In this document: piece by piece, positions 2,835 through 58,263 of the stretch | Numbering within the stretch: position 1 is the stretch's first letter | Layout of the letters: the number at the start of each line of letters is the position of its first letter | DNA from: an uncultured Candidatus Actinomarina sp. | GTDB taxonomy: Bacteria; Actinomycetota; Acidimicrobiia; Actinomarinales; Actinomarinaceae | Assembly: GCA_902535055.1 (NCBI GenBank) | Contig: CACASI010000003.1 | Coordinates: 65,336 to 129,335, forward strand | Direction of reading: 5' to 3' | DNA: 64,000 bases | The notes under the pieces: model-generated | Seen by the model: the letters and a program-made list of their open reading frames with translations, nothing else | Database searches by the model: none | Told to the model about the DNA's origin: nothing | Program-made: the position numbers and the translations under genes

Positions 2835-3005
2835 GGTGCTAATCTTTTTAAAACAAATAAAGTAAAAAAGCGAAGCTAGTGAAAATCTAGCACTGTCCCG
2901 CAACTGTGATTCTTCGGATAAGTCAGGTCGACTTTCTTGCTTTTTAGACAACAATCCTCGAGAGAAGGAATGGAGTATCTTACTTTTTCTCGTGGTGAGA
3001 AAGGA
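2835..3005 (+). promoter_or_regulatory. Cobalamin (B12) riboswitch
   Basis: The sequence GGUGC..AAGCGAAGCUAGUGAAAAUCUAGCACUGUCCCGCAACUGUGA..GAUAAGUCAGGUCGAC reproduces the conserved cobalamin core (GUGAAAAUC, CCCGCAACUGU, B12-box AGUCAGG). It lies directly 5' of a BtuF-like binding-protein gene. Confidence 0.75.
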
Positions 3006-14520: not shown

Positions 14521-15762
14521 ATGTTGAATGTAGTTGTAATTGGTGGTGGGTTTGGAGGACTTAAATTTCTTCAACGGGCTAGAAGTAGCAAAATTCAATT
14601 TACTCTTATAGACAAGCAAAATCATCATTTATTTCAACCATTACTTTATCAGGTAGCAACTGCAGTTTTATCTCCAGCTAATATTGCTTTTCCAATCAGA
14701 AGAATGTTTAAAAATTACAAAAATGTAAAAGTAATATTAGATGAAGCTGTAGATATAAATCGTGACGAAAAGACTGTGACCATATCAAATGGCGACAATA
14801 TAAAGTACGATCAACTAATTGTAAGTACTGGGTCAAAACATTCTTATTTTGGTAATGAAGACTGGTCTAAATATTCAAATGGACTTAAAGGAATTAATGA
14901 CGCTTTACAAATTCGTGAAAGATTATTGAGGGCGTTTGAAAAAGCTGAGAATGAAAAAAATATTGATAAGAGAGCAAAATATTTAAACTTTGTAGTCGTT
15001 GGTGGTGGACCTACAGGAGTTGAAATGGCTGGCTCAATAGCTGAGATTGCATTTAACAATATGAAGGAAGAGTTTAGAAATTTTAAGAGTTCAGATGCTA
15101 ATGTTTATTTAATTGAAGCTACTGAAAAAATCTTACCAATGTATAGCGACAGGCTGTCTGGAAAAGCAAAAAAGTATCTTGAAGACTTTGGAGTTGAAGT
15201 AAGAACAAATGAGAAAGTTGTGAAAATAGAAAATGATCTAGTCAAGACGGACAAAGAAGACATACATACAGATAACGTTGTGTGGGCAGCAGGTAACGAA
15301 GCAAGCCCAATAATTGAGAAGCTAAATACGAAAACAGATAATGAAGGAAGAGCAATTGTTGACCCAGATTGTTCACTTAAAGACGATGGAAACGTATTTG
15401 TCATCGGAGACGCTGCTAATTATAAAGATAAGAAAAACAACACTCTTCCAGGCATTGCCCCAGTAGCAATCCAACAAGGGAAATATCTCGCAAAAGTTAT
15501 AAAGAGTAAAACAATCAAGAAAGATAGAAAACCTTTTAAATACAATGATAAGGGAATGATGGCAACGGTGGGCAGGTATAAGGCGATAGGTAAAATTGGA
15601 AATATAGAAGTATCTGGTTTTTTAGCTTGGCTCTTTTGGAGTGCAATTCACATTCTGTATTTAATAGGATATAGATCAAAAATATTAGTTGTGATTGAGT
15701 GGATATTTTCCTACCTTTTCAATAAAAAAGGTACAAGATTAATTTACAGAGAACCAACTTAG
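14521..15762 (+). CDS. ndh: Type II NADH dehydrogenase (NDH-2)
   Basis: It has two dinucleotide folds (VVVIGGGFGGL; VVVGGGPTGVEMAG), the GDAA motif and a C-terminal membrane-association helix. Confidence 0.85.
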   Translation: MLNVVVIGGGFGGLKFLQRARSSKIQFTLIDKQNHHLFQPLLYQVATAVLSPANIAFPIRRMFKNYKNVKVILDEAVDINRDEKTVTISNGDNIKYDQLIVSTGSKHSYFGNEDWSKYSNGLKGINDALQIRERLLRAFEKAENEKNIDKRAKYLNFVVVGGGPTGVEMAGSIAEIAFNNMKEEFRNFKSSDANVYLIEATEKILPMYSDRLSGKAKKYLEDFGVEVRTNEKVVKIENDLVKTDKEDIHTDNVVWAAGNEASPIIEKLNTKTDNEGRAIVDPDCSLKDDGNVFVIGDAANYKDKKNNTLPGIAPVAIQQGKYLAKVIKSKTIKKDRKPFKYNDKGMMATVGRYKAIGKIGNIEVSGFLAWLFWSAIHILYLIGYRSKILVVIEWIFSYLFNKKGTRLIYREPT

Positions 15763-22323: not shown

Positions 22324-22440
22324 CTATCTCTTTTTCTTCTTGTAATGATTATCTATAAAGACTTTCTTCACAAAAAGTTAATATAAAATTACACTGAAAA
22401 TAAATTTTTTTCAAAAAAAAATTATCTTTTTTTTCCCACT

Positions 22441-25380: not shown

Positions 25381-26367
25381 ATGGTAAGCAAACAAGCTCA
25401 AAAAAGCATAAAACAATTTAGGCGTTTTGCAAAAATTTTAAGTTCCATATACAGAAGTCCAAATGAAATGACAAATTGGAGAATAAAGCTTTTCAGATGG
25501 CTTGTTGATTTACAAGGAGTATTTGGTCCAAAAGTTAAAGGAACAAAAAAAGAAGAATTTTACATTAACGGAATAAAAACATGGAAAATATCTACACCTT
25601 CATCCGATCCTAATAGGATATTATTATATTTTCATGGAGGAGCTTACTCTTTAGGCAGTCCAAAAAGTCATTACTCTCTTGCCAGCCATTTGGCTGAGAT
25701 AACAAAAACAACAATCTACATTCCAGACTATCGTCTAGGACCTGAAAGCAAGTACCCTTCACAACTTAATGATGCTCTTACAGTTTATGAACATTTATTG
25801 AATGAAAAAAATTATAAATCAAACCAAATTGCATTTGGTGGGGATTCTGCAGGAGGTAATCTTGCACTTGTAACTTTATTGAAACTAATTGATTCAGATA
25901 AGGATTTACCAACATCCCTAGCTTTATTGTCACCCTGGACAGATTTAACGGGAACAGGAACTACCTATACGGAAGACATGGCAGACAGAGATTTGCTTTT
26001 AGGTCCAATATTCAAAAGAATTTGGGCAAATGGAGACTCGCTTCATGGCTTTTATATTAATGAAGGAGAATTTGATTCAAATAATCCTTACATGATCCCA
26101 CTTAAGGGAGATTTCACTTCAAGTCCTCCAATAATGATCCAGGTTGGCACAGAAGAACTATTGTTATCTGATTCCCAGTCATTGAAGAAAATACTTGATA
26201 GAGATAAATGTGAAAATGAATATTTTGAATGGGAAGGGATGTATCACGTTTTTCATATAGATGTAAGAATGCCCGAAACAATATCTGCTTTTGAACAAAT
26301 AGGAAATTTTTTAAACAAACATATACCTACACAGACAGAACACGAATCTCAAATTAATCTTCAGTGA
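25381..26367 (+). CDS. Alpha/beta-hydrolase fold-3 esterase/lipase (HSL family)
   Basis: It has the HGGAY oxyanion motif, the GDSAGGN nucleophile and a late His in ..GMYHVF. Confidence 0.8.
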   Translation: MVSKQAQKSIKQFRRFAKILSSIYRSPNEMTNWRIKLFRWLVDLQGVFGPKVKGTKKEEFYINGIKTWKISTPSSDPNRILLYFHGGAYSLGSPKSHYSLASHLAEITKTTIYIPDYRLGPESKYPSQLNDALTVYEHLLNEKNYKSNQIAFGGDSAGGNLALVTLLKLIDSDKDLPTSLALLSPWTDLTGTGTTYTEDMADRDLLLGPIFKRIWANGDSLHGFYINEGEFDSNNPYMIPLKGDFTSSPPIMIQVGTEELLLSDSQSLKKILDRDKCENEYFEWEGMYHVFHIDVRMPETISAFEQIGNFLNKHIPTQTEHESQINLQ

Positions 26368-27019: not shown

Positions 27020-28129
27020 TTAGATAAATTTTCCTAATTCTTTTTCAAACAGATCAGGCTCTAAAAGAAAACAATCATGACCTTTTGTTGAACTGATTGT
27101 TTTATGAGTTACATTGATTTGATTTGCTTCCAAAAGCTTAATAAATTCTAATTGTTCTTCTGGATAAAAACATACATCTGAATCAACAGAAACTACTAAA
27201 ACTTTAATATCTTTAAGTCTTTCAATTTTCTCTACATCTATAGAAAAGTTTTGCCAACCTTTAATTATTGAATTGTAAGATTCATGAGTGAATCTCTCAA
27301 TGAACTTTTCTCCTTGATGCATCATATAAGACTCTTGTGATGTTGATAAGAAACCATTAATTATGTCTTCACCATACTTACTTTCACCTTTAGCCCTTGA
27401 TGCAAGAAGCTCCAAAGAGATGTAAGTTTTATGTGCAATCATTCTTGCTAGAGACAAATACTCGTCTCTTCTGTCAGGTGAACCTTTTGCCAGATTCAAC
27501 ACGTAAGCTTGTTCAAGGTTGTGAAGTAACTGAATTGTGGACAATTTATATCCACTTGAAATTGAGATAAGATTTTCTACAAAATCTGGATATAAAAGAG
27601 AAAACTCTAATGCCATTAAGCCTCCAATAGAGGGACCAATCACGGCCTTTAAGGATTTAACTCCTAGGTTATCTAATAATTGTTTTTGTGAAGTTTCTAT
27701 ATCCTTGAAAGAAATATTTGGAAAATTCTCGCCATATTCTAATCCAGTTTTATTATCAATAGAATTTGGACCTGTGGTCCCGTAACATCCACCAAGATAG
27801 TTTGCACAAACTACAAAATATTTTTCGGTATCAATAAGTTTATCTACACCAACAAATTCATCCCACCAGCCAATTTCTAATTCATCATTCCAGGGAATTT
27901 CTGAGTTTTCTTCTTGAGAATAACTTCCTGCCAACATATGACTTCCGGTTAGAGCGTGAAATATTAATACAGCATTGTCGCCTTTTTCTGACAAAGTTCC
28001 GTAAGTAGTGTAAGCAATCTCTACATTCTCTAGCAGTTCACCCGAATCAAGTTTAAATTGTGGAATGTAAAACTTGCTTGTTTTATTTTGTACTTTCAAG
28101 AGCCTGAGATAGATCTTCAATGATATCAT
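27020..28129 (-). CDS. metX: Homoserine O-acetyltransferase
   Basis: It has HALTGSH, the GPSIGG nucleophile elbow and a C-terminal ..GHDCFL. The start is uncertain: ATG 28129 overlaps metY by 47 nt, and internal TTG codons exist. Confidence 0.85.
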   Translation of the reverse strand: MISLKIYLRLLKVQNKTSKFYIPQFKLDSGELLENVEIAYTTYGTLSEKGDNAVLIFHALTGSHMLAGSYSQEENSEIPWNDELEIGWWDEFVGVDKLIDTEKYFVVCANYLGGCYGTTGPNSIDNKTGLEYGENFPNISFKDIETSQKQLLDNLGVKSLKAVIGPSIGGLMALEFSLLYPDFVENLISISSGYKLSTIQLLHNLEQAYVLNLAKGSPDRRDEYLSLARMIAHKTYISLELLASRAKGESKYGEDIINGFLSTSQESYMMHQGEKFIERFTHESYNSIIKGWQNFSIDVEKIERLKDIKVLVVSVDSDVCFYPEEQLEFIKLLEANQINVTHKTISSTKGHDCFLLEPDLFEKELGKFI

Positions 28130-29363
28130 CTATGTCTTCAATACCAATTGAAAGCCTTACTAACTCTGCAGGAGAACCTGCAGCTATTAACTGCTCGTCA
28201 TCTAATTGTGAATGTGTTGTGGATGCAGGGTGAATTGCTAAAGATCTAGTATCTCCAACATTCGCAACATGTCTAAACATCTTTAAATTATCAATAAATT
28301 TTTGTCCAGAATCTTTTCCACCTTTTATACCAAAAACAACCATTGTTCCGCCAGTACCTTTCAAGTACTTTTCTGATAGGTCATATGCAGGATCATCTTT
28401 GAGTCCTGGAAACCTTACCCATTCAACAAGTTCATGGTTTGATAGATATTCAGCTGCTTTTATAGCATTTTCACAATGCCTGTCCATTCTCAGACTTAAA
28501 GTCTCAAGACCACTCATAACTTCAAATGCTGTCTCTGGAGACATACTTGCACCAAGATTTCTTAGCGGCACTGTTCTTAGCCTTAATGAGTAAGCTACAT
28601 TACTTAAATCACCTAAATCATGTCCCCATCTCATTCCTCCATAACTGGTATCAGGCTTGTCATATAATGGGAAATTTCCATTACCCCAGTCAAAACCACC
28701 TTTTTCAATAACTGCTCCGGCAATTACTCTTCCATGTCCAGACATCCATTTTGTAAGAGAATAAACTACAATATCTGCTCCAAAATCAAAAGGTTTACAA
28801 ATTGCTGATGTAGTAAAAGTAGCATCAACTATTAAAGGGATACCTTTAGATTTAGCAATTTCTCCTAATCCAGAGATATCAGCGACAACTAATCCTGGAT
28901 TAGTTATTGTCTCACAATATATTGCTCGAGTTTTCTCATCAATTGCATTTTCAACAGCAGTTAGATCTGTAATATCAACTTTTTTAGAGTCGATACCGTA
29001 TTCAGGCAATATATTATCGAACATTGTATAAGTACCGCCATAAAGTTGGTTTGCTGTAACAAAATTATCTCCTTGACTCATAATATTTATAAGAGAGTAC
29101 ATAACTGCAGATGTTCCCGACGATAGAGCAACAGACATAGCGCCATCTTCTAGAGCCGTAAGCCTTGCTTCTAAGGCACCAACAGTTGGATTGCCGAGTC
29201 GAGAGTAAATGTTTCCAAACTCTTTTAAGGCAAACAAGCTAGCTGCATGTTCAGTGTCATTAAATTGATATGCAGTTGTTTTATAAATGGGAACAGTTAT
29301 TGACCCCTCAGAGTCAGCATCTGAATCCCAACCTGCATGTATAAGTTTTGAATCAAACTTCAT
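28083..29363 (-). CDS. metY: O-acetylhomoserine sulfhydrylase (PLP-dependent)
   Basis: It belongs to the Cys/Met-metabolism PLP family, with ..YSLTKWMSGHG.. as the PLP-Lys motif. It is preceded by a SAM riboswitch. Confidence 0.9.
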   Translation of the reverse strand: MKFDSKLIHAGWDSDADSEGSITVPIYKTTAYQFNDTEHAASLFALKEFGNIYSRLGNPTVGALEARLTALEDGAMSVALSSGTSAVMYSLINIMSQGDNFVTANQLYGGTYTMFDNILPEYGIDSKKVDITDLTAVENAIDEKTRAIYCETITNPGLVVADISGLGEIAKSKGIPLIVDATFTTSAICKPFDFGADIVVYSLTKWMSGHGRVIAGAVIEKGGFDWGNGNFPLYDKPDTSYGGMRWGHDLGDLSNVAYSLRLRTVPLRNLGASMSPETAFEVMSGLETLSLRMDRHCENAIKAAEYLSNHELVEWVRFPGLKDDPAYDLSEKYLKGTGGTMVVFGIKGGKDSGQKFIDNLKMFRHVANVGDTRSLAIHPASTTHSQLDDEQLIAAGSPAELVRLSIGIEDIDDIIEDLSQALESTK

Positions 29364-29480
29364 AATATTCTCCTTTGTTTGGAGAAGGGCTTTGACTAAT
29401 TAGTTGCATTTCTGCCACATCTTCAGGCACCTTGGATAGTCTTCCAGGTTGCCGAGGTCTTAACCTTCTCTTTATGCTTA
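29364..29480 (-). promoter_or_regulatory. SAM riboswitch (SAM-I clan, compact) with SD-sequestering expression platform
   Basis: The minus strand reads GCAUAAAGAGAAGGUUAAGACCUCGGCAACCUGGAAGACUAUCCAAGGUGCCUGAAGAUGUGGCAGAAAUGC. It contains AGAG, GGCAACC and GGUGCC with a GCAU/AUGC closing helix. It is followed by CCCUUCUCC-aaacaaa-GGAGAAuauuAUG. Confidence 0.65.
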
Positions 29481-29583
29481 AATAATTATATCAAATTTTA
29501 TAAAATGAACTAAAACTTTTTATTTATTTCTTTGTTTTTTACAATTATTACTTAATTTTTATTTAATAGAATAATAATTGAAG

Positions 29584-32198: not shown

Positions 32199-32257
32199 AA
32201 TACAAATTTTATATTTAACTGGTAAATATCAATAATTGAGGTTGTTAAAGTAATTTT

Positions 32258-32539
32258 ATGAAATTAAATGGCACTGAATTTCAAAATTTAGTTTGGAAAG
32301 AAATCTCTAGAATTCCTTATGGTCAAACTGTGTCTTATAAAGAGATTGCAGCAAGAATTGGTCATCCTAATTCATCAAGAGCAGTTGCAAATGCTTGTGG
32401 AAAAAATCCTTACCCAATAATAATTCCTTGTCATAGAGTCATTTGCTCAAATGGTAAATTAGGGGGTTACAGTGGTCCCGGTGGGATATCTGAAAAAAGA
32501 AGACTCCTTAAAAATGAAAACAACGAAACAAAGTTTTAA
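32258..32539 (+). CDS. ogt: Methylated-DNA-protein-cysteine methyltransferase, C-terminal domain only
   Basis: It has the PCHRV active site and the YGQTVSYKEIA helix-turn-helix region. At only 93 aa, it lacks the N-terminal domain. Confidence 0.85.
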   Translation: MKLNGTEFQNLVWKEISRIPYGQTVSYKEIAARIGHPNSSRAVANACGKNPYPIIIPCHRVICSNGKLGGYSGPGGISEKRRLLKNENNETKF

Positions 32540-32652
32540 CATCATTTACTTTTCTAAACTGCGTATAAGTTAAAATTAAATTTATGAATTTTATAAACAG
32601 ACATCATAAAGGATGGTCAGCTATTTAGCCGGGTCTTTTTTGTATTGTTTAG

Positions 32653-32678
32653 ATCCGGGTTTATCCCGGATTTTTTTA
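32653..32678 (+). terminator. Rho-independent terminator
   Basis: ATCCGGG-tttat-CCCGGAT is followed by TTTTTTT. Confidence 0.7.
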
Positions 32679-32726
32679 TAACTTAAAGTTATCCCCTTGA
32701 CTTTAAATTATGAAAACTTAGATAAT

Positions 32727-32815
32727 TGGTCTCCCTTTTATCTGAGTACGTACTGGAATTAAGGGCTTGTGGTAGTGGATATACCAGGCTCTTAATTTCA
32801 GGTTAATTTAAAAGT
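32727..32815 (+). ncRNA. Candidate small structured RNA (unknown family)
   Basis: A promoter-like TTGACT-N18-GATAAT lies at 32697-32726. Downstream is a ~49-nt near-continuous hairpin, CUGGAAUUAAGGGC-uug-UGGUA-guggaua-UACCA-g-GCUCUUAAUUUCAG (32753-32801). No ORF is present. Confidence 0.3.
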
Positions 32816-32823
32816 ATTCGTTT

Positions 32824-33006
32824 CTAATTAAATAAAATTGCAAAAAAGAAAACAAATATATAGATAAAAACACTTATTAATCCTCCAAGTTTTAATAAAT
32901 TATTAAGTGGGATGCCAACTTCATTACAGTCTTTACATTTACTTAAAAGATTAGGCGGGAAAGCCTTGTCCCAGATTTCATTTTTGATGCATTGCTTGCA
33001 ATTCAC
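32824..33006 (-). CDS. Small zinc-ribbon-like, tail-anchored membrane protein
   Basis: The 60-aa product has CKQC..x18..CKDC followed by a C-terminal hydrophobic helix. The start codon directly abuts the 3' CCA of tRNA-Ile. Confidence 0.4.
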   Translation of the reverse strand: MNCKQCIKNEIWDKAFPPNLLSKCKDCNEVGIPLNNLLKLGGLISVFIYIFVFFFAILFN

Positions 33007-33084
33007 TGGTGGGCCTAGTTAGATTTGAACTAACGACCTCATCCTTATCAGGGATGCGCTCTAACCAGGCTGAGCTATAGGCCC
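33007..33084 (-). tRNA. tRNA-Ile (GAU)
   Basis: A cloverleaf can be read on the minus strand: GGGCCUA..anticodon loop CU-GAU-AA..UUCAAAU..UAGGCCC-A-CCA. The CCA is encoded. Confidence 0.9.
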
Positions 33085-33173
33085 TTTCGCTCTATCTACA
33101 ATAGTAATGAATACAAAATATTTCTAAAATTTTTTCATTTACGAGTCAATACAAGGCATAATAAATGATGCGA

Positions 33174-33246
33174 GGGGATGTAGCTCAGTTGGAAGAGCAC
33201 CTGCTTTGCAAGCAGGGGGTCGTGGGTTCAAGTCCCATCATCTCCA
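33174..33246 (+). tRNA. tRNA-Ala (UGC)
   Basis: It reads GGGGAUG..anticodon loop UU-UGC-AA..GGUUCAAGUCC..CAUCUCC-A. The G3:U70 identity pair is present. The CCA is not encoded. Confidence 0.9.
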
Positions 33247-33267
33247 CAAAAAGCTATTCTTATTTAT

Positions 33268-33453
33268 ATGGATAAAAAAGATTTTCAGGATTTATCTGAA
33301 AGAGAATTAAGGGAACTTAAAGAGTCTATTGAAGATTTACTCGAAGAAAAAAAATTTAAAGGTCGTTATCTTAAAACAAATCAAAGAGCTATTGGAATAG
33401 CGTGGTTTATTATTGCAATCATTATTTCTGCTTTTAGGTATTTCACACTGTAA
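33268..33453 (+). CDS. Small membrane protein (charged N-terminal helix plus one TM)
   Basis: It is a 61-aa ORF whose stop overlaps the next start (TAATG). Confidence 0.45.
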   Translation: MDKKDFQDLSERELRELKESIEDLLEEKKFKGRYLKTNQRAIGIAWFIIAIIISAFRYFTL

Positions 33454-33686
33454 TGGAATACTTAATAGCATTACTAATTGGAGTTGTAATTTTTAGATTT
33501 TTAAAAAATTCGATTGGTTCACTAGCAAGCGTACCTCCAGAGATTGATCCGAGTGATGTATTAGAGACGGCACAATCATTTTTATGTAAAGCTTGTGGAA
33601 CAGAACTAACAGTAAAATTACAATCTGTGGTAGCTAATGAACCCCCTAAGCACTGTAAAGAAGAAATGACACCTTTAGAATATTAA
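33453..33686 (+). CDS. Small membrane-anchored Cys-containing protein
   Basis: The 77-aa product has an N-terminal TM helix, then CKACGTE..x20..HCKEE. Confidence 0.45.
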   Translation: MEYLIALLIGVVIFRFLKNSIGSLASVPPEIDPSDVLETAQSFLCKACGTELTVKLQSVVANEPPKHCKEEMTPLEY

Positions 33687-33943
33687 TTATATTTTGTAGT
33701 CATTAGAAAGCCTATACCGATGCAGCCTAAGCCACTCCATAAATACCATCTTGAGACTGACCCGGGAAGTAATGTCAAATAATTTAATACTATTAGCAAA
33801 ACACCGATAACCATAAGTGCAGACATTGTGAGAACAAACCACCTAGGTGAAGGGCCACTAACATCAGACATTTGAGAAGATATTTTCTTAGACTTAGTAG
33901 GTCCAAGGTTTTTTGCTTTATTTCTTTTTTTAGAGACAGGCAT
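33683..33943 (-). CDS. crgA: Cell division protein CrgA
   Basis: It has a basic N-terminus (MPVSKKRNKAKN), SPRWFV and two TM helices (..LNYLTLLPG..WYLWSGLG..), the characteristic actinobacterial CrgA layout. Confidence 0.85.
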   Translation of the reverse strand: MPVSKKRNKAKNLGPTKSKKISSQMSDVSGPSPRWFVLTMSALMVIGVLLIVLNYLTLLPGSVSRWYLWSGLGCIGIGFLMTTKYN

Positions 33944-33961
33944 AATTAAAAAATAGTGTTT

Positions 33962-38271: not shown

Positions 38272-39522
38272 ATGATTGATCCCCAACTTTTAAAAACAAA
38301 TATCGAAGCAATCGAAGAAAATATAAGAAAAAGAGACCTTAATATTGATTTAGATAAATTAAAACTTCTTGATGAAAGTAGAAGAGCTTTAAAGTTTGAA
38401 TCTGAAAAGCTACGAGCCGAACAAAAAAAATTGGGCAAGGAAATTGCATCAGCATCCGAAAAAGAAAAAGCTACCCTCTTAGAAAAAGCGGAGAAGATTA
38501 GTAATAATGTAAAAAGTCTTTTAGAAGAAACACAGCAAAAAGACGAAGAATTTTTTGATGGATGGATAAAAATTCCCAACATAGTCAACTCTTCTTCACC
38601 AGTGGGTAAAACTGATGAAGACAATAAAGAAATAAAGAAGGTTGGAGAACCAAATAACATCAAAAATCCGATGACACACCTAGAAATAGGTGAAAAACTT
38701 GGATTAATAGATGTTGAAAGGGCTTCTAAAATATCAGGTTCAAGATTTTCTTATTTATTTGGAGATTTAGTAAAAATCCAATTTAATTTAGTTTCGTATA
38801 CATTAAACAAATTATCAGAAAAAGGCTTTAACCCGACAATTCCTCCAGTTTTAGTTCGTGAAAATGCCTTATTTGGAACAGGGTTTTTTCCTGATGACTC
38901 TGATCAAGTTTATGAAGTTCAAAATGATGACCTATTTTTGGTTGGCACATCAGAAGTTTCATTAGCTGCACTACATACTGATGAAATCATAGACATGAAG
39001 AACTTACCATTAAGATATGCTGGTTATTCAACTTGTTTCAGAAGAGAGGCAGGAACTTATGGCAAAGACACGAGTGGTATTTTTCGAGTTCATCAATTTG
39101 ATAAAGTTGAGATGTTCTCCTTTTGTGATCCAGAAAAATCAAATGAAGAACATGAATACATTCTCACAATTGAAGAAGAAATACTCCAAGATCTTGAAAT
39201 TCCTTACAGAGTTGTTGATGTTTGTACAGGAGACTTAGGAGCTTCTGCAGCAAAAAAATATGACATCGAGGCATGGATACCAAGTCAACAAAAGTACAGA
39301 GAGGTAACCTCTTGTTCCAATACAACCGATTTTCAAGCAAGAAGACTGAATATGAGAACAAAAATTGATGATGGAAATATTATATTGCATACTCTTAACG
39401 GTACAGCTTTAGCAGTAGGAAGAATCTTAATTGCCTTACTTGAGAACAATCAGCAATCCGACGGAAGCGTAACGTTCTCTGATGATTTAGGAAAGATACT
39501 TGGAGTAAATAAATTAAGCTAG
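38272..39522 (+). CDS. serS: Seryl-tRNA synthetase
   Basis: It has an N-terminal coiled-coil arm and class II motifs (..FRREAG.., ..GRILIALLEN..). Confidence 0.95.
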   Translation: MIDPQLLKTNIEAIEENIRKRDLNIDLDKLKLLDESRRALKFESEKLRAEQKKLGKEIASASEKEKATLLEKAEKISNNVKSLLEETQQKDEEFFDGWIKIPNIVNSSSPVGKTDEDNKEIKKVGEPNNIKNPMTHLEIGEKLGLIDVERASKISGSRFSYLFGDLVKIQFNLVSYTLNKLSEKGFNPTIPPVLVRENALFGTGFFPDDSDQVYEVQNDDLFLVGTSEVSLAALHTDEIIDMKNLPLRYAGYSTCFRREAGTYGKDTSGIFRVHQFDKVEMFSFCDPEKSNEEHEYILTIEEEILQDLEIPYRVVDVCTGDLGASAAKKYDIEAWIPSQQKYREVTSCSNTTDFQARRLNMRTKIDDGNIILHTLNGTALAVGRILIALLENNQQSDGSVTFSDDLGKILGVNKLS

Positions 39523-40065: not shown

Positions 40066-40111
40066 CAGAATATTTTAGGTTTATTTATGCTTTATAGAAG
40101 AGAATTTAAAG

Positions 40112-40200
40112 CGGAGGGAGTGGGATTCGAACCCACGGAGCCTTTAAAGACTCACGACATTTCGAGTGTCGCGCACTAGGCCGGACTATGCGATCCCTCC
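40112..40200 (-). tRNA. tRNA-Ser (CGA)
   Basis: The minus strand reads GGAGGGA..anticodon stem CGACA/UGUCG, loop CU-CGA-AA, long variable arm, ..GGUUCGAAUCC..UCCCUCC-G. Confidence 0.9.
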
Positions 40201-40218
40201 TAGAATAAGTTTAGGGAA

Positions 40219-40677
40219 ATGAATTATAAATCTGACATAGAAAAAATGGAAGTAGCCCTACAAGAAGCAAAAAGGGCTCTTGAAATAGATGAAGTTCCTA
40301 TTGGTGCGGCCATTTTCGACGCAGAGGATAAGTTAATCACAAAAGCTCACAACAGAAGAGAAGTAGACCAAGATCCAACCGCGCATGCTGAAATTCTTGT
40401 AATAAAAGAGGCATCTAAAATTTTAAAAACCTGGAGACTTGAAGGAACCACCCTTGCAATAACATTGGAACCAGATCCAATGTGTGCGGGCGCTATTGTA
40501 AATGCAAGAATAAAGACCCTTTTATATAGTTCCCCTAATTTAAAGTCAGGAGCTGCATACACCTTATATAATATTCCTCAAGATAAAAGGCTAAATCACT
40601 TTGTTGAGATAAGAGATAATATTTTGTCCCATGAATCTGAAGTTATATTATCCTCTTTCTTTGAAAGTAAGAGATAA
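40219..40677 (+). CDS. tadA: tRNA adenosine(34) deaminase
   Basis: It has the CDA fold with the HAE motif (DPTAHAEIL) and TLEPDPMCAGA. The first Cys of the usual PCxxC is Asp here. Confidence 0.85.
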   Translation: MNYKSDIEKMEVALQEAKRALEIDEVPIGAAIFDAEDKLITKAHNRREVDQDPTAHAEILVIKEASKILKTWRLEGTTLAITLEPDPMCAGAIVNARIKTLLYSSPNLKSGAAYTLYNIPQDKRLNHFVEIRDNILSHESEVILSSFFESKR

Positions 40678-40705
40678 GTAAACTTATACTTTAGATCTTT
40701 TACAT

Positions 40706-40794
40706 GGAGGGATCGCATAGTCTGGCCTAGTGCGCACGCTTGGAAAGCGTGTAAGGGTTTATCCCCTTCGAGGGTTCGAATCCCTCTCCCTCCG
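40706..40794 (+). tRNA. tRNA-Ser (GGA)
   Basis: It reads GGAGGGA..stem CACGC/GCGUG, loop UU-GGA-AA, long variable arm, GGUUCGAAUCC, UCCCUCC-G. Confidence 0.9.
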
Positions 40795-40813
40795 CACAAA
40801 AGATTTTAAATTT

Positions 40814-40899
40814 GGAGGGATGGCCGAGCGGACGAAGGCGTTAGTCTTGAAAACTAATGTATGTATTCCATACCGTGGGTTCGAATCCCACTCCCTCCG
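40814..40899 (+). tRNA. tRNA-Ser (UGA)
   Basis: It reads GGAGGGA..stem UUAGU/ACUAA, loop CU-UGA-AA, long variable arm, GGUUCGAAUCC, UCCCUCC-G. Confidence 0.9.
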
Positions 40900-40906
40900 C
40901 ATGCTT

Positions 40907-40998
<92 letters not shown>

Positions 40999-40999
40999 A

Positions 41000-41073
<74 letters not shown>

Positions 41074-41100
41074 CAAATATGTCTTTTTTATTTGGTATTT

Positions 41101-54715: not shown

Positions 54716-56794
54716 TTAAAGTTTTCTCGATGAATTTATTACAACGGACAAACTTGACAGGGCCATAGCTAATGCGGCCATACTTGGGACAATATTACCT
54801 GTAACTGCAATAGGGATCATAATTATGTTGTAAATAAAGGCTAAAAACAAATTCTCACTAATTCTTCTATTTGCGTTTTTTGAAATTTTGAATATTGAGT
54901 TTAACTTTTCAAAGCCTCCTCTAAAAATAATTATATCGCTAACACTTTGTGCAATTTGTGTACTCTGAGCGAATGTCAAACTTACATTAGCTTGTTCCAG
55001 AGCAGGAGAGTCATTAATCCCATCACCTATAAAGCCAACAGTTTTATCTTTCTGTTTGTTCTTTATATATTCTAATTTCTCTTCTGGTGACTGATTTCCA
55101 AGGGCAACATCTATTTGTAAATCCTCTCCAATTTTTTTAACTTTCTCGGGCTTATCTCCAGATAAAATTTCAATTTCATACTCACTTGAAAGATTTTCAA
55201 TAACATCTTTATTTAAAGTTTTATCTTCAACCAAAGTAATTAGATACTCCTTAGCGTCAATCTTTAAAATCAAATCACTATCTAGATCTTTATTTGATTT
55301 TTTAACTTCCACAATCTTATTATCTACAATTCCCGTGACACCTTTACCGGGAATTTCATTAAATTCATCAACAGTTGAGAGTTTTAAGTTTTTTATTTCT
55401 GACTCCAAAAGGATACTTTTAGCAATAGGGTGGTTTGATTTCTGTTCAACAGACGCCAGTATCCTTATAATTTCATCATCGACAACGAGGCTATTCTCAT
55501 TTGTAATTTTTTCGATTTTAAAAATACCAGACGTTAAAGTTCCAGTCTTATCAAATATTAGTGTATCCAGCTTGGTAAATTTTTGAAGATAGTCAAAATT
55601 TTTAAAAATGAATCCATTTTTATTGGAAATAGATGCAGTACGAAATAACACAATTGGAGTTGCAAGACCAAGAGCACAAGGACATGCAATTACCAAGATT
55701 GCAATTGTCGAACTAATTGTTTCTGAAAAATCATTTCCAAAAATATAAAATTTAGTCAAAAAATTTATAAAGCTTAAAATCAAAATTGAAGGTACAAAAA
55801 TATTTGTTATCTTATTTACGAGTTCTTGAACGTCAGGTTTTGTAGTTTGTGCTTTTAAAATTAATTTTTCTATATAATTTATTGTTGTTTCGCCATCTTT
55901 TTTTGTTACCTTAACTTCAATATCATTTCCAAGATTGACAGAACCTGATACAACCGTATCTCCTTGTTTTTTTAAAATTGGTTCTGCTTCTCCGGAAATA
56001 ATACTTTCATCAACTTCAGAATGACCATAATCAATCTCACCATCAAGAGGAATAATTTCTCCCTTCTTAACAATGATTACTTGATTTACAGATATTTCGC
56101 TAAGAGGTTTACGTATGATTTTTTTATCGTCATAAACATTCACATCTTTTGGGATACTTTCAATAATTGAATCAGATATAGAGATCGATGACTTTATAGA
56201 AATATCTTCTATCGTTTTTCCTATAAGTAAAAAGCTTATAATGAAACCACCAGTCTCAAGATACATCAGTTCTCCATTATTAGGCAAGACGCCAATAACA
56301 AAAGAAGACAAGCTCCCAATAGAGATCAATGTATCCATATTAAAATTTAGATTCCTAATACTCTTTAATGCTGATGAGTGAAATGTTCTTCCAAAAATAA
56401 ATATTATTATTGAGCTAATTCCTAATGCTATAAAATCTTGATTAGCTTCTATAAGTGGGTTGAGAGCAAGAGTTGACAGAAGTGAAATTATTGGAATAAA
56501 GAATCTTCTAAAATTTTTAATATCTTCAACTTGTATTTCTTCTTGAGCTGAATATCCAACTGATCTAATTTTTTCAATATAATTCTCAGAATTTACATCT
56601 TCAGTATTTAATTCGATTACAGCTTTTTTTAAAGGAAAGTTTACGACTACATCTTCAACAGTTTCTTCTTTATCTAAAACTCTTTCTATCCTTGCAGCAC
56701 AAGCTGCACAGGTCATTCCTTCGACAGATAGAATGAGTGTTTTTGTATCAGCTGACAACTGTATAGCCTTGTTCATCAAGGAGTGACTTAACAA
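54716..56794 (-). CDS. copA: Copper-translocating P-type ATPase
   Basis: It has an N-terminal HMA domain (GMTCAACAARIE), CPCALGLATP, DKTGTLT, SNHPIA and GDGINDSPAL. The start is uncertain (TTG 56794 or ATG 56776; both overlap copZ). Confidence 0.9.
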   Translation of the reverse strand: MLSHSLMNKAIQLSADTKTLILSVEGMTCAACAARIERVLDKEETVEDVVVNFPLKKAVIELNTEDVNSENYIEKIRSVGYSAQEEIQVEDIKNFRRFFIPIISLLSTLALNPLIEANQDFIALGISSIIIFIFGRTFHSSALKSIRNLNFNMDTLISIGSLSSFVIGVLPNNGELMYLETGGFIISFLLIGKTIEDISIKSSISISDSIIESIPKDVNVYDDKKIIRKPLSEISVNQVIIVKKGEIIPLDGEIDYGHSEVDESIISGEAEPILKKQGDTVVSGSVNLGNDIEVKVTKKDGETTINYIEKLILKAQTTKPDVQELVNKITNIFVPSILILSFINFLTKFYIFGNDFSETISSTIAILVIACPCALGLATPIVLFRTASISNKNGFIFKNFDYLQKFTKLDTLIFDKTGTLTSGIFKIEKITNENSLVVDDEIIRILASVEQKSNHPIAKSILLESEIKNLKLSTVDEFNEIPGKGVTGIVDNKIVEVKKSNKDLDSDLILKIDAKEYLITLVEDKTLNKDVIENLSSEYEIEILSGDKPEKVKKIGEDLQIDVALGNQSPEEKLEYIKNKQKDKTVGFIGDGINDSPALEQANVSLTFAQSTQIAQSVSDIIIFRGGFEKLNSIFKISKNANRRISENLFLAFIYNIIMIPIAVTGNIVPSMAALAMALSSLSVVINSSRKL

Positions 56795-56951
56795 GATCTA
56801 AATCAATTTCTTCTGAAGATTTTAATGTAACGTCTTTGGTTTCTATACTTACTTCAACTAATTCAATAACATCAACAGTTGATAGGGTATCGATAATTGT
56901 ACTTTTGCAATGATCACAACTTATTTCAGGAACAGTAAATTTTATAGTCAT
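56748..56951 (-). CDS. copZ: Copper chaperone (HMA domain)
   Basis: The 67-aa product has a ferredoxin-like HMA fold pattern with the SCDHC metal motif. It sits directly upstream of copA. Confidence 0.8.
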   Translation of the reverse strand: MTIKFTVPEISCDHCKSTIIDTLSTVDVIELVEVSIETKDVTLKSSEEIDLDLVKSLLDEQGYTVVS

Positions 56952-57000: not shown

Positions 57001-57195
57001 TTAAGCAGTTTCTTGAAGAATTCTTCCTCTAACTCTTGGATATTTAACCGGAGCATGATTAAAGCAATGCTCTCTTTTGTTATATATACTCAATTGAGTT
57101 TTACAAGACTCTTCTTTACAAGTCCTACCTTGGTCAAAACTTTTTGAAGGTCTTATACCACCTTTAATTTGACTTGCTTTTAATCCGTCAGTCAT
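57001..57195 (-). CDS. Small zinc-ribbon-like protein (C-x4-C-x13-C-x2-H)
   Basis: The start is taken at ATG 57195 (GGGG 4 nt upstream), giving MTDGLKASQIKGG..RTCKEESCKTQLSIYNKREHCFNH... The track's TTG-initiated extension to 57309 would run across the divergent gene start. Confidence 0.5.
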   Translation of the reverse strand: MTDGLKASQIKGGIRPSKSFDQGRTCKEESCKTQLSIYNKREHCFNHAPVKYPRVRGRILQETA

Positions 57196-57206
57196 TTTTC
57201 CCCACT

Positions 57207-57224
57207 TTGTGAATATATTCACAA
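57207..57224. promoter_or_regulatory. Perfect 18-bp palindrome (candidate operator)
   Basis: TTGTGAATA|TATTCACAA lies 12 nt upstream of the zinc-ribbon gene start, in the divergent intergenic region shared with the SelW-like gene. Confidence 0.35.
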
Positions 57225-57298
57225 GGTTAACAAAATATTGCATAGCATGCAAGTTTTTACAAACCTTTTTATACAGATACGTATAGTAACATTTGATT

Positions 57299-57535
57299 AT
57301 GAAAATCAAACTAGAATTTTGTATAGTTTGAAACTATACACCCCGTGCAGTTAGTACGGTTGAAGACATACTTGAAAAATATGGAAAAGAAATAACGTCA
57401 ATAGATTTGATACCTGGAACTGGTGGAGTGTTTGAGCTTTACTTAGATGAAGTGTTGATCTATTCAAAGCTTGAAACTGGTCGTCATACGAACGAAGGTG
57501 AAATTTTACAGTTAATGGAAAACGCACTTAGTTGA
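57299..57535 (+). CDS. SelW/Rdx-family redox protein with in-frame UGA (candidate selenoprotein, CxxU)
   Basis: The product reads MKIKLEFCIV-U-NYTPRAVSTVEDILEKYGKEITSIDLIPGTGGVFELYLDEVLIYSKLETGRHTNEGEILQLMENALS. Both sides of TGA 57329-57331 match Rdx-family features (CxxC/U, L.PG.GG.FE..D..LI.SK). It is not in the ORF track. Confidence 0.7.
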
Positions 57536-58263
57536 CATATCCATTCGATCTATCTTTACTAGAATTAATCTTTATTTCATTCCTGCTGTTTACAAGTGCA
57601 GCCATTCAAGGTATTTTAGGTTTTGGTTTTGCAGTTATTTCCTCTCCAATATTAGTTCAAATCGAACCATTGCTTGTTCCACAAATACTTAGCCTTTTGG
57701 CATTACCTATGACTTTTAGAATCTACCAAAGAGAAAAAAATAAAGTAGATTGGAAACCATTCAAATTTTTATTTCTAGGAAGGATTATTGGAGGACCATT
57801 AGGCTTACTGCTTTTAATAAATTTAAGTGAACAACTACTCTCCATAAGTGTCGGAGCAATCGTTCTATTTGGTGGGCTTGCAACATACTATGGTTGGATT
57901 GTAAAAAGAGATAATAAAACATCTTGGATTGCAGGGACATTGTCGGGAGTATTCGCAATGATTGCTGGCGTAGGAGGTCCCCCAATCGCAATTCTATACA
58001 GAGGCACCGCTGGTAATGAATTTAGACCCTCACTTAATGCTGTATTCACATTTGGAATAACAATAACTCTTGGTCTTCTGCTAATTAGTGGAGAAATATT
58101 TAGGGATCATCTTATTCTTGTATTATATCTAGCTGTTCCGGTGGCAATTGGATTAAGACTTTCTTCATTTTTTTCAAATATATCTGAGATGGCTATATCA
58201 AGAGGGGTTACCTACTTTTCAATTATCTCAGGCTTATTTGTAATACTTAGGAATATAATTTAG
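57532..58263 (+). CDS. TauE/SafE (DUF81) family anion-transport membrane protein
   Basis: Its TTG start overlaps the upstream stop (TTGA). It has about eight helices with GxGG-like repeats (..GILGFGFAV.., ..MIAGVGGPPIA..). Confidence 0.7.
   Translation: MTYPFDLSLLELIFISFLLFTSAAIQGILGFGFAVISSPILVQIEPLLVPQILSLLALPMTFRIYQREKNKVDWKPFKFLFLGRIIGGPLGLLLLINLSEQLLSISVGAIVLFGGLATYYGWIVKRDNKTSWIAGTLSGVFAMIAGVGGPPIAILYRGTAGNEFRPSLNAVFTFGITITLGLLLISGEIFRDHLILVLYLAVPVAIGLRLSSFFSNISEMAISRGVTYFSIISGLFVILRNII

Follow-up and report, generated by a model that had tools for sequence, protein, structure and literature searches.

SelW-like proteins are a long-known family of prokaryotic selenoproteins and, of the selenoprotein families in marine metagenomes, the most abundant one, with 427 selenocysteine (Sec) forms in the Global Ocean Sampling (GOS) data (PMC2398784). 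For the bacterial selenocysteine insertion sequence (SECIS), a published model, bSECIS, specifies a loop of 3 to 9 nt, an upper stem of 4 to 16 bp, a distance of 16 to 37 nt from the UGA to the loop, and a minimum free energy no higher than -7.5 kcal/mol; the loop carries a G in its first two positions, usually followed by G or U (PMC13188914). A preprint on 84 complete Actinomarina genomes reports selC, selA, and selD in all of them, with a divergent selB, and approximately five predicted selenoproteins per genome; the most abundant and widespread of these families is described as "78 aa, uncharacterized" and is not assigned to SelW/Rdx, and Rfam models found no SECIS there (bioRxiv 10.64898/2026.04.03.716425). 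Here we analyze a gene with an in-frame TGA, at positions 57299-57535 of a 64-kb stretch of DNA from an uncultured Candidatus Actinomarina sp. (contig CACASI010000003.1); the whole of this stretch is called the window below. The gene is a well-documented member of the SelW-like family and has a canonical SECIS.

Our favored account, which we hold to be very likely, is that the 78-residue product is a SelW-like (Rdx-fold) predicted thiol/selenol oxidoreductase with a C8-x-x-U11 redox center, and that the UGA is recoded through a SECIS at 57343-57359. The features on which this account turns are as follows.

57299-57535, plus strand: 78-codon gene for a SelW-like (Rdx family) selenoprotein that has the redox motif C8-I-V-U11, recognized from its translation, Pfam, relatives in the PDB, and 59 orthologous loci.
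57329-57331, plus strand: predicted Sec codon UGA (codon 11), TGA in 59 of 59 Actinomarinales loci, with conservation on both sides.
57332-57342, plus strand: spacer of 11 nt that separates the UGA from the SECIS stem, read from the sequence and consisting mostly of the 3' arm of helix 1.
57343-57359, plus strand: bacterial SECIS apical hairpin (helix 2), with the stem 57343-57348 paired to 57354-57359 and the loop AGUUA at 57349-57353.
57320-57340, plus strand: palindrome (helix 1), in which codons 8 to 10 pair with codons 12 to 14 and the UGA forms a 3-nt loop.

Translation from the ATG at 57299 gives MKIKLEFCIV, the TGA at 57329-57331, 67 more codons, and a stop TGA at 57533-57535. This is the frame proposed in an earlier note on the window made from the letters alone (here, the sequence-only reading), and direct reading and translation confirmed it. 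The same note had remarked on a gap in the list of ordinary open reading frames (ORFs), and the gap is real: the sole plus-strand entry at 57299-57535 is a 42-aa ORF that starts with TTG (57407-57535). With U replaced by C, the product matched the Pfam family Rdx (PF10262) with an E value of 7.5e-19 and a score of 68.2 bits (gathering cutoff, 22.6), covering profile positions 1 to 73 of 74, and the SelW-like assignment made from the letters is thereby borne out. The nearest solved structures, found by sequence search alone, were the bacterial SelW-related proteins 3dex (2e-9), 2fa8, 2p0g, and 2obk. Fragments of the same protein carry the name "selenoprotein W-related protein" in the annotation of the Joint Genome Institute (JGI). 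TGA also serves as an ordinary stop, as had been claimed, ending 7 of the 43 long ORFs of the window, including the one that stops at 26365-26367; this supports the view that recoding is site specific and that the genetic code is not reassigned.

A scan for orthologues in one genome of each GTDB species yielded 59 loci, many of them from closely related single-cell genomes, with protein identities of 62 to 95%. All but two of these loci are labeled Candidatus Actinomarina, Actinomarinales, or a broader actinobacterial group. The two others, L016 (NYXO01000052.1, "Methanobacteriota archaeon") and L017 (NZKG01000031.1, "Marinoscillum sp."), carry a near-identical Actinomarina locus, made up of the SelW-like gene and the TauE gene that follows it, at 85 to 87% protein identity to the window, and their contigs are probably misbinned in those metagenome-assembled genomes. 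Codon 11 is TGA at all 59 loci and Cys at none of them, and an assembly error is therefore excluded. Conservation at the protein level, together with synonymous variation, was seen both upstream and downstream of this codon. Two of the outcomes that the sequence-only reading had named as fatal to recoding, a miscalled TGA and a lack of conservation beyond it, are thus excluded.

The wider family was sampled by a search of 1.84 billion representative proteins, of which 148 of the best 150 matches were inspected. The redox position was encoded by TGA (displayed as W) in 50 of these 148 representatives and was Cys in 52, in agreement with the placing of the TGA at the second position of a CxxC/CxxU motif (here C8-I-V-U11). 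Alternation between Cys and Sec was thus found in the wider family and not in the Actinomarinales, where TGA is universal. The Sec forms among the representatives nearly always run on as U-N-Y-x-P-[KR]-A. The N-Y that follows U is family-wide, and C-[IV]-V and T14 are found in the Actinomarinales only. Approximately 45 "full-length" database homologues of 84 to 92 aa have W both at position 11 and where the terminal TGA lies; these are gene calls made with genetic code 4 on short contigs, and the TGA is present in every one. As a separate observation on annotation, such calls run past the real TGA stop into 6 to 14 spurious residues, a systematic artifact for this gene.

We next consider helix 2, which reads CCGUGC-AGUUA-GUACGG and begins 11 nt after the UGA. 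With its flanks it folds at -8.2 kcal/mol, and its 5-nt loop, 6-bp stem, and UGA-to-loop distance of 17 nt (57332-57348) bring it within every constraint of the bSECIS model. The loop is AGUUA or AGUUG, with G at position 2 followed by U, and this GU is invariant in the 59 loci. The stem is unbroken in all of them, and its cells are 100% paired across the 33 distinct sequences. The closing pair is U-A in 19 of these sequences, C-G in 13, and G-C in 1, and the remaining variation consists solely of changes from G-U to G-C or from G-C to G-U. Events were placed on a simple neighbor-joining tree built from approximately 900 nt of other sequence, so that the counts are approximate; both sides of the closing pair switched on the same four branches, and no event disrupted the helix.

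The codons that encode the hairpin are constrained in the same region. No third-position changes were found in codons 16, 17, 18, and 20, compared with a mean of 6.9 per third position in codons 22 to 78. R16 is encoded by CGT in 52 of 52 sequences, though CGT makes up 6% of Arg usage in the genome, and T20 is encoded by ACG in 51 of 52, though ACG makes up 7% of Thr usage; the codons for A17 and V18 are likewise fixed at their synonymous sites. The sequence-only reading had mentioned this hairpin as a "weak conventional candidate" (CCGU-N9-ACGG). That description understates it, since the stem has 6 bp rather than 4 and is the best-supported RNA element of the gene. Helix 2 is a canonical SECIS under strict selection and not a weak candidate. 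A scan of the window at Rfam gathering thresholds returned no match to a SECIS family, as expected because bacterial SECIS elements are poorly represented in Rfam. Other selenoprotein genes in the window were sought by a scan for ORFs that read through TGA and by a scan for SECIS patterns with ORF support, and none was found.

We propose that the UGA at 57329-57331 would be decoded as Sec by the standard bacterial route, in which a complex of SelB, GTP, and Sec-tRNA(Sec) would bind the hairpin at 57343-57359. Because the hairpin begins 11 nt past the UGA, it would be placed at the mRNA entrance while this codon occupies the A site. The TGA at 57533-57535, which has no SECIS, would terminate translation. 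In this account, helix 1 would stem mainly from the near self-complementary coding of C-[IV]-V-U-N-Y-T, with some synonymous codon choice in addition. It would form on ribosome-free mRNA only and would have to melt before the UGA is read. At most, it might act like the dispensable lower helix of the Escherichia coli fdhF SECIS, with the UGA and the spacer kept paired until the ribosome arrives.

The perfect 21-nt palindrome to which the sequence-only reading had drawn attention is present as described, TGTATAGTT-TGA-AACTATACA at 57320-57340, with 9-bp arms centered on the TGA. It folds at -6.8 kcal/mol, and its seven inner pairs have probabilities of at least 0.97. The window holds two perfect palindromes with 9-bp arms and a 3-nt loop (the other, at 22403, is an A/T run), compared with 0.76 expected from shuffled sequences, and the palindrome alone is therefore unremarkable. 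Given the peptide C-I-V-U-N-Y-T and the codon usage of the window, nine Watson-Crick pairs arise with a probability of 1.3%, or 5.8% for nine pairs with G-U allowed, and the commonest chance outcome under the latter rule is 7 of 9 pairs.

Retention of helix 1 varies among species. Nine Watson-Crick pairs are present in 32 of the 59 species and at least 8 pairs, with G-U allowed, in 48, and 93.9% of its cells are paired across the 33 distinct sequences. One pair covaries (GC in 25, AU in 7, and broken in 1), and four pairs vary by mismatch alone. Compensatory changes in the arms, to which the sequence-only reading had looked for support, came to one double change on the tree (G-C to A-U at 57323:57337, on a single branch) against approximately 10 to 12 independent pair-breaking changes. 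Free energies range from -8.7 to 0.0 kcal/mol across the species and are -2.2 kcal/mol or weaker in 13 of the 59. An internal mismatch reduces the helix to -2.2 kcal/mol in a clade of 10 species (the L007 clade); L029 and L030 are at -1.6 and -2.0 kcal/mol, respectively; and L018 has lost four pairs and is at 0.0 kcal/mol. All of these retain the UGA and an intact SECIS. The L018 variant, C-I-T-U, was found on 18 contigs from four sources and is therefore not a sequencing error. For a comparison outside the Actinomarinales, 107 distinct Sec-form SelW-like genes were fetched with a DNA pattern (metagenome examples). The 9 nt on either side of the UGA form a mean of 4.9 pairs in these genes, at least 7 pairs are formed in 5 of them, and the loop-closing pair is missing in 69; the UGA-centered helix is absent from this set.

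Several species do without the palindrome, and it is therefore not the recoding signal. We conclude that helix 1 either follows from the peptide as a by-product or is an auxiliary helix under weak selection; it is lineage specific and dispensable, and at most auxiliary. It is also a cautionary case, in that the encoded peptide can account for most of a perfect palindrome at a recoding site, however striking.

A number of observations weigh against the account that we favor. ARAGORN detected no tRNA-Sec in the window or in the 59 loci, and no selA, selB, or selD was found by NCBIfam scans of 20 suitably sized ORFs of the window or in the fetched loci; that the Sec machinery is present in the source genome rests on the preprint cited above. 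Some relatives with a U-A closing pair fold helix 2 at -6.5 to -6.7 kcal/mol, which is weaker than the -7.5 kcal/mol of the model. The other points concern helix 1. The inferred ancestor, which had the C-V-V form, possessed 9 of 9 Watson-Crick pairs, with a probability of 0.4% given its peptide. At all six synonymous sites of the arms, the pairing base is the commonest one, and this includes the otherwise disfavored codons AAC and TAC. N12 is encoded by AAC in 48 of 52 sequences, compared with 25% usage in the genome; codon 9 is GTA 35 times and GTT once; and T14 is encoded by ACA in 43 of 52 sequences. Each third position in the arms changed 2.8 times on average, compared with 6.9 times in codons 22 to 78.

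These points bear on the best-surviving alternative, which we regard as possible but unlikely: that helix 1 is a selected auxiliary helix, specific to the Actinomarinales, that sequesters the UGA and the 11-nt spacer on free, probably leaderless mRNA. Such a helix might pre-organize the SECIS for SelB, slow the ribosome, or protect the 5' end, and it would tune recoding without being essential to it. The full pairing of the ancestor and of 32 species, the near-complete pairing in 48, the base preference at the synonymous arm sites, the reduced synonymous rate in the arms, the high probabilities of the inner pairs, and the G-C to A-U double change on a single branch all speak for it. Against it, at least 10 independent disrupting changes have been fixed, among them those of the 10-species clade and of L018, with the UGA and the SECIS kept. 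Codons 2 to 7, which lie outside the helix, change equally slowly (2.2 third-position changes per site). Furthermore, the 107 other SelW-like genes have no counterpart, and covariation amounts to a single event. A more specific proposal, which we find slightly more doubtful still, is that the UGA-centered helix is a selected second element of the recoding site in the Actinomarinales, which on leaderless mRNA would stand in, as an "upstream-closing" helix, for the lower helix of the SECIS. If this were true, the Sec codon and the 11-nt spacer would be held beside the SelB-binding hairpin, which would tune Sec insertion against termination or stabilize the mRNA.

The sequence-only reading had gone further and proposed that the hairpin displaying the UGA is itself an atypical Sec recoding signal, with the downstream hairpin as a weak candidate. 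We consider this highly improbable. The palindrome is indeed perfect, centered exactly on the UGA, and retained in most Actinomarinales; however, the downstream hairpin covaries, shows every hallmark of a SECIS, and is constrained far more strictly, and 13 of 59 species have lost helix 1 or have a very weak one, among them lineages in which the selenoprotein gene is kept (L018 and the L007 clade); helix 1 is also missing from the SelW-like Sec genes of other lineages. In addition, the ribosome has a footprint of approximately 30 nt and a helicase at its entrance, so that both arms of helix 1 would be enclosed by it while the UGA occupies the A site. The hairpin would therefore be unable to present the codon during decoding.

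There is a similarly slim chance that the palindrome is a DNA operator for a dimeric regulator, located just inside the coding region. It is a perfect inverted repeat of 21 bp, approximately 20 to 40 bp downstream of the likely transcription start, and the one covarying pair also keeps the symmetry of the DNA. However, no second copy was found in the 64-kb window with up to 3 mismatches allowed, several lineages carry G-U-type (asymmetric) or mismatched variants, and most of the sequence follows from conserved amino acids. Weakest of all, and already refuted by the conservation data, is the reading of the TGA as a genuine stop or an error, with the region being a pseudogene or two unrelated short ORFs: standard gene callers do end at this TGA, but the TGA and the frame are kept in 59 independent assemblies and many metagenome contigs, the codon is flanked on both sides by amino acid conservation with synonymous variation, and the Rdx hidden Markov model spans it.

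With recoding through the helix 2 SECIS as the preferred reading, the surroundings of the gene offer further leads. The features concerned are listed here.

57532-58263, plus strand: TauE/SafE-family (TSUP) membrane permease gene (Pfam PF01925), apparently coupled in translation to the selenoprotein gene.
57533-57535, plus strand: TGA that ends the selenoprotein gene and shares bases with the start codon of the gene that follows (TTG, 57532-57534); all 59 loci have this TTGA junction.
57282-57287, plus strand: putative -10 box TATAGT, conserved in the upstream alignment.

The TauE product matched PF01925 with an E value of 2.3e-19 and 70.4 bits (gathering cutoff, 32.6), over profile positions 4 to 236 of 237. 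Its TTG start at 57532 overlaps the stop TGA, and the preceding codon in the TauE frame is a stop. The gene is adjacent in all 59 loci, at an offset of -1 in 58 of them, and the TTGA junction noted in the sequence-only reading is invariant. These observations suggest coupled translation of the SelW-like and TauE genes. Among 120 loci with SelW-like genes of other lineages, many of them short, no TauE gene was found beside the SelW-like gene. The invariant coupling is a lead on the role of the protein, which perhaps ties redox handling to the transport of sulfur or selenium anions. We also considered TauE as a selenoprotein extended upstream, and this was rejected: many stops interrupt its frame upstream of TTG 57532, and there is no in-frame TGA extension.

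In other clades, the position of the putative -10 box is taken by TGATA[GC]TAT, which ends 6 to 8 nt before the ATG, and across the window and L001-L059 the -10-like boxes end 6 to 11 nt before it. No Shine-Dalgarno sequence is visible upstream of the SelW ATG. Because a -10-like box lies near the ATG and a Shine-Dalgarno sequence is lacking, the upstream sequence suggests that the SelW-like mRNA is leaderless or has a leader of a few nucleotides. If it is leaderless, the Sec codon would lie approximately 30 nt from the 5' end. A scan for promoters and terminators gave nothing above the expectation from shuffled sequences.

The Actinomarina preprint also lists a third "selenoprotein" group, from 49 genomes, under K07090 (bioRxiv 10.64898/2026.04.03.716425). 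Its 78-aa family is very probably the SelW-like gene of the window, the two being matched on length and frequency rather than on sequence. K07090 is presumably a TauE-type family; if so, we would speculate that the third group may be the SelW ORF, attributed to the TauE gene because the coordinates of the two overlap. Three results seem to be new: that the 78-aa family of Actinomarina can be assigned to SelW/Rdx, how the SECIS of this lineage is defined, with its 4-nt shift in register relative to other SelW-like genes, and that the coupling to TauE is invariant. A bacterium that ranks among the most abundant in the ocean now has its 78-aa selenoprotein placed in the SelW/Rdx family, and the lineage definition of the SECIS (11-nt spacer, 6-bp stem, AGUUR loop) can be used to find other Actinomarina selenoproteins.

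Several further features of the window were recorded. A perfect 18-bp palindrome, TTGTGAATA|TATTCACAA, lies at 57207-57224, 12 nt upstream of the minus-strand ATG of ORF 57001-57195, and is kept in the window clade and in L028-L032. This minus-strand ORF encodes 64 aa, contains Cys and His, has no Pfam match, and heads a copZ-like HMA gene (56748-56951) and a 692-aa ORF (54716-56794) that resembles a P-type ATPase by its look. The 18-bp palindrome looks like the operator of a metal-responsive regulator. At 14521-15762 on the plus strand, a 413-aa pyridine nucleotide-disulfide oxidoreductase matched NCBIfam TIGR03169, "Nterm_to_SelD," with 119.9 bits, below the cutoff of 310, and also weakly matched a selenoprotein subtype of sulfide:quinone reductase; going by the name of the model, the TIGR03169 family is linked to SelD. 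A 1.7-kb stretch at 32199-33961 has no ORF of 100 aa or more and holds the divergent genes for tRNA-Ile(GAT) (33007-33084, minus strand) and tRNA-Ala(TGC) (33174-33247, plus strand), a pair usually located in rRNA spacers; no rRNA was found in this stretch. An S-adenosylmethionine (SAM)-I/IV riboswitch (29390-29482, minus strand) lies upstream of the gene for O-acetylhomoserine sulfhydrylase (28083-29363), and an adenosylcobalamin (AdoCbl) riboswitch (2845-2981, plus strand) lies upstream of a gene for a substrate-binding protein that weakly resembles BtuF. Finally, serS adjoins a cluster of four tRNA-Ser genes and a tRNA-Arg gene (38272-39522 and 40111-41074).

The recoding site can be compared with the E. 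coli fdhF SECIS, the sequence of which was verified at 100% identity inside fdhF in more than 5,400 genomes and then folded. In the fold, the apical stem of the fdhF element likewise starts 11 nt after the UGA, a spacing for which no open-access source was found, and a G-U dinucleotide is present in its loop. In both elements the spacer is base paired in free mRNA, where it would have to be unwound by the ribosome. The partner of the spacer differs. In fdhF it pairs with sequence 3' of the apical hairpin, which produces one long stem with a lower helix, whereas in Actinomarina its partner is the 9 nt on the 5' side of the UGA, and two adjacent hairpins result, one of which has the UGA in its loop. 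Unlike in fdhF, no U bulge is predicted in the Actinomarina element.

The SECIS elements of the 107 other SelW-like genes (from among loci L060-L179) resemble that of the window in having a stem of approximately 6 bp and a loop of AGUUU, GGUCU, or similar, formed from the codons for P-[RK]-A-x-[SG]-L. Their loops start 21 to 22 nt after the UGA, compared with 17 nt in the Actinomarinales, and they have no UGA-centered helix beside them. The Actinomarinales hairpin is thus shifted by 4 nt relative to the protein alignment, with the AGUU-type loop kept. At the protein level, the window gene shares with bacterial SelW-like selenoproteins (PF10262, formerly pfam05169) the predicted thioredoxin-like Rdx fold family and a CxxU motif after the first beta-strand, and the U-N-Y-x-P-[KR]-A context is common to approximately 50 Sec-form representatives. 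What sets the Actinomarinales apart from these proteins is the C-[IV]-V-U-N-Y-T sequence around U, the Sec form in all 59 loci with no Cys form seen, and a gene that is always joined through TTGA to that of a TauE-family permease.

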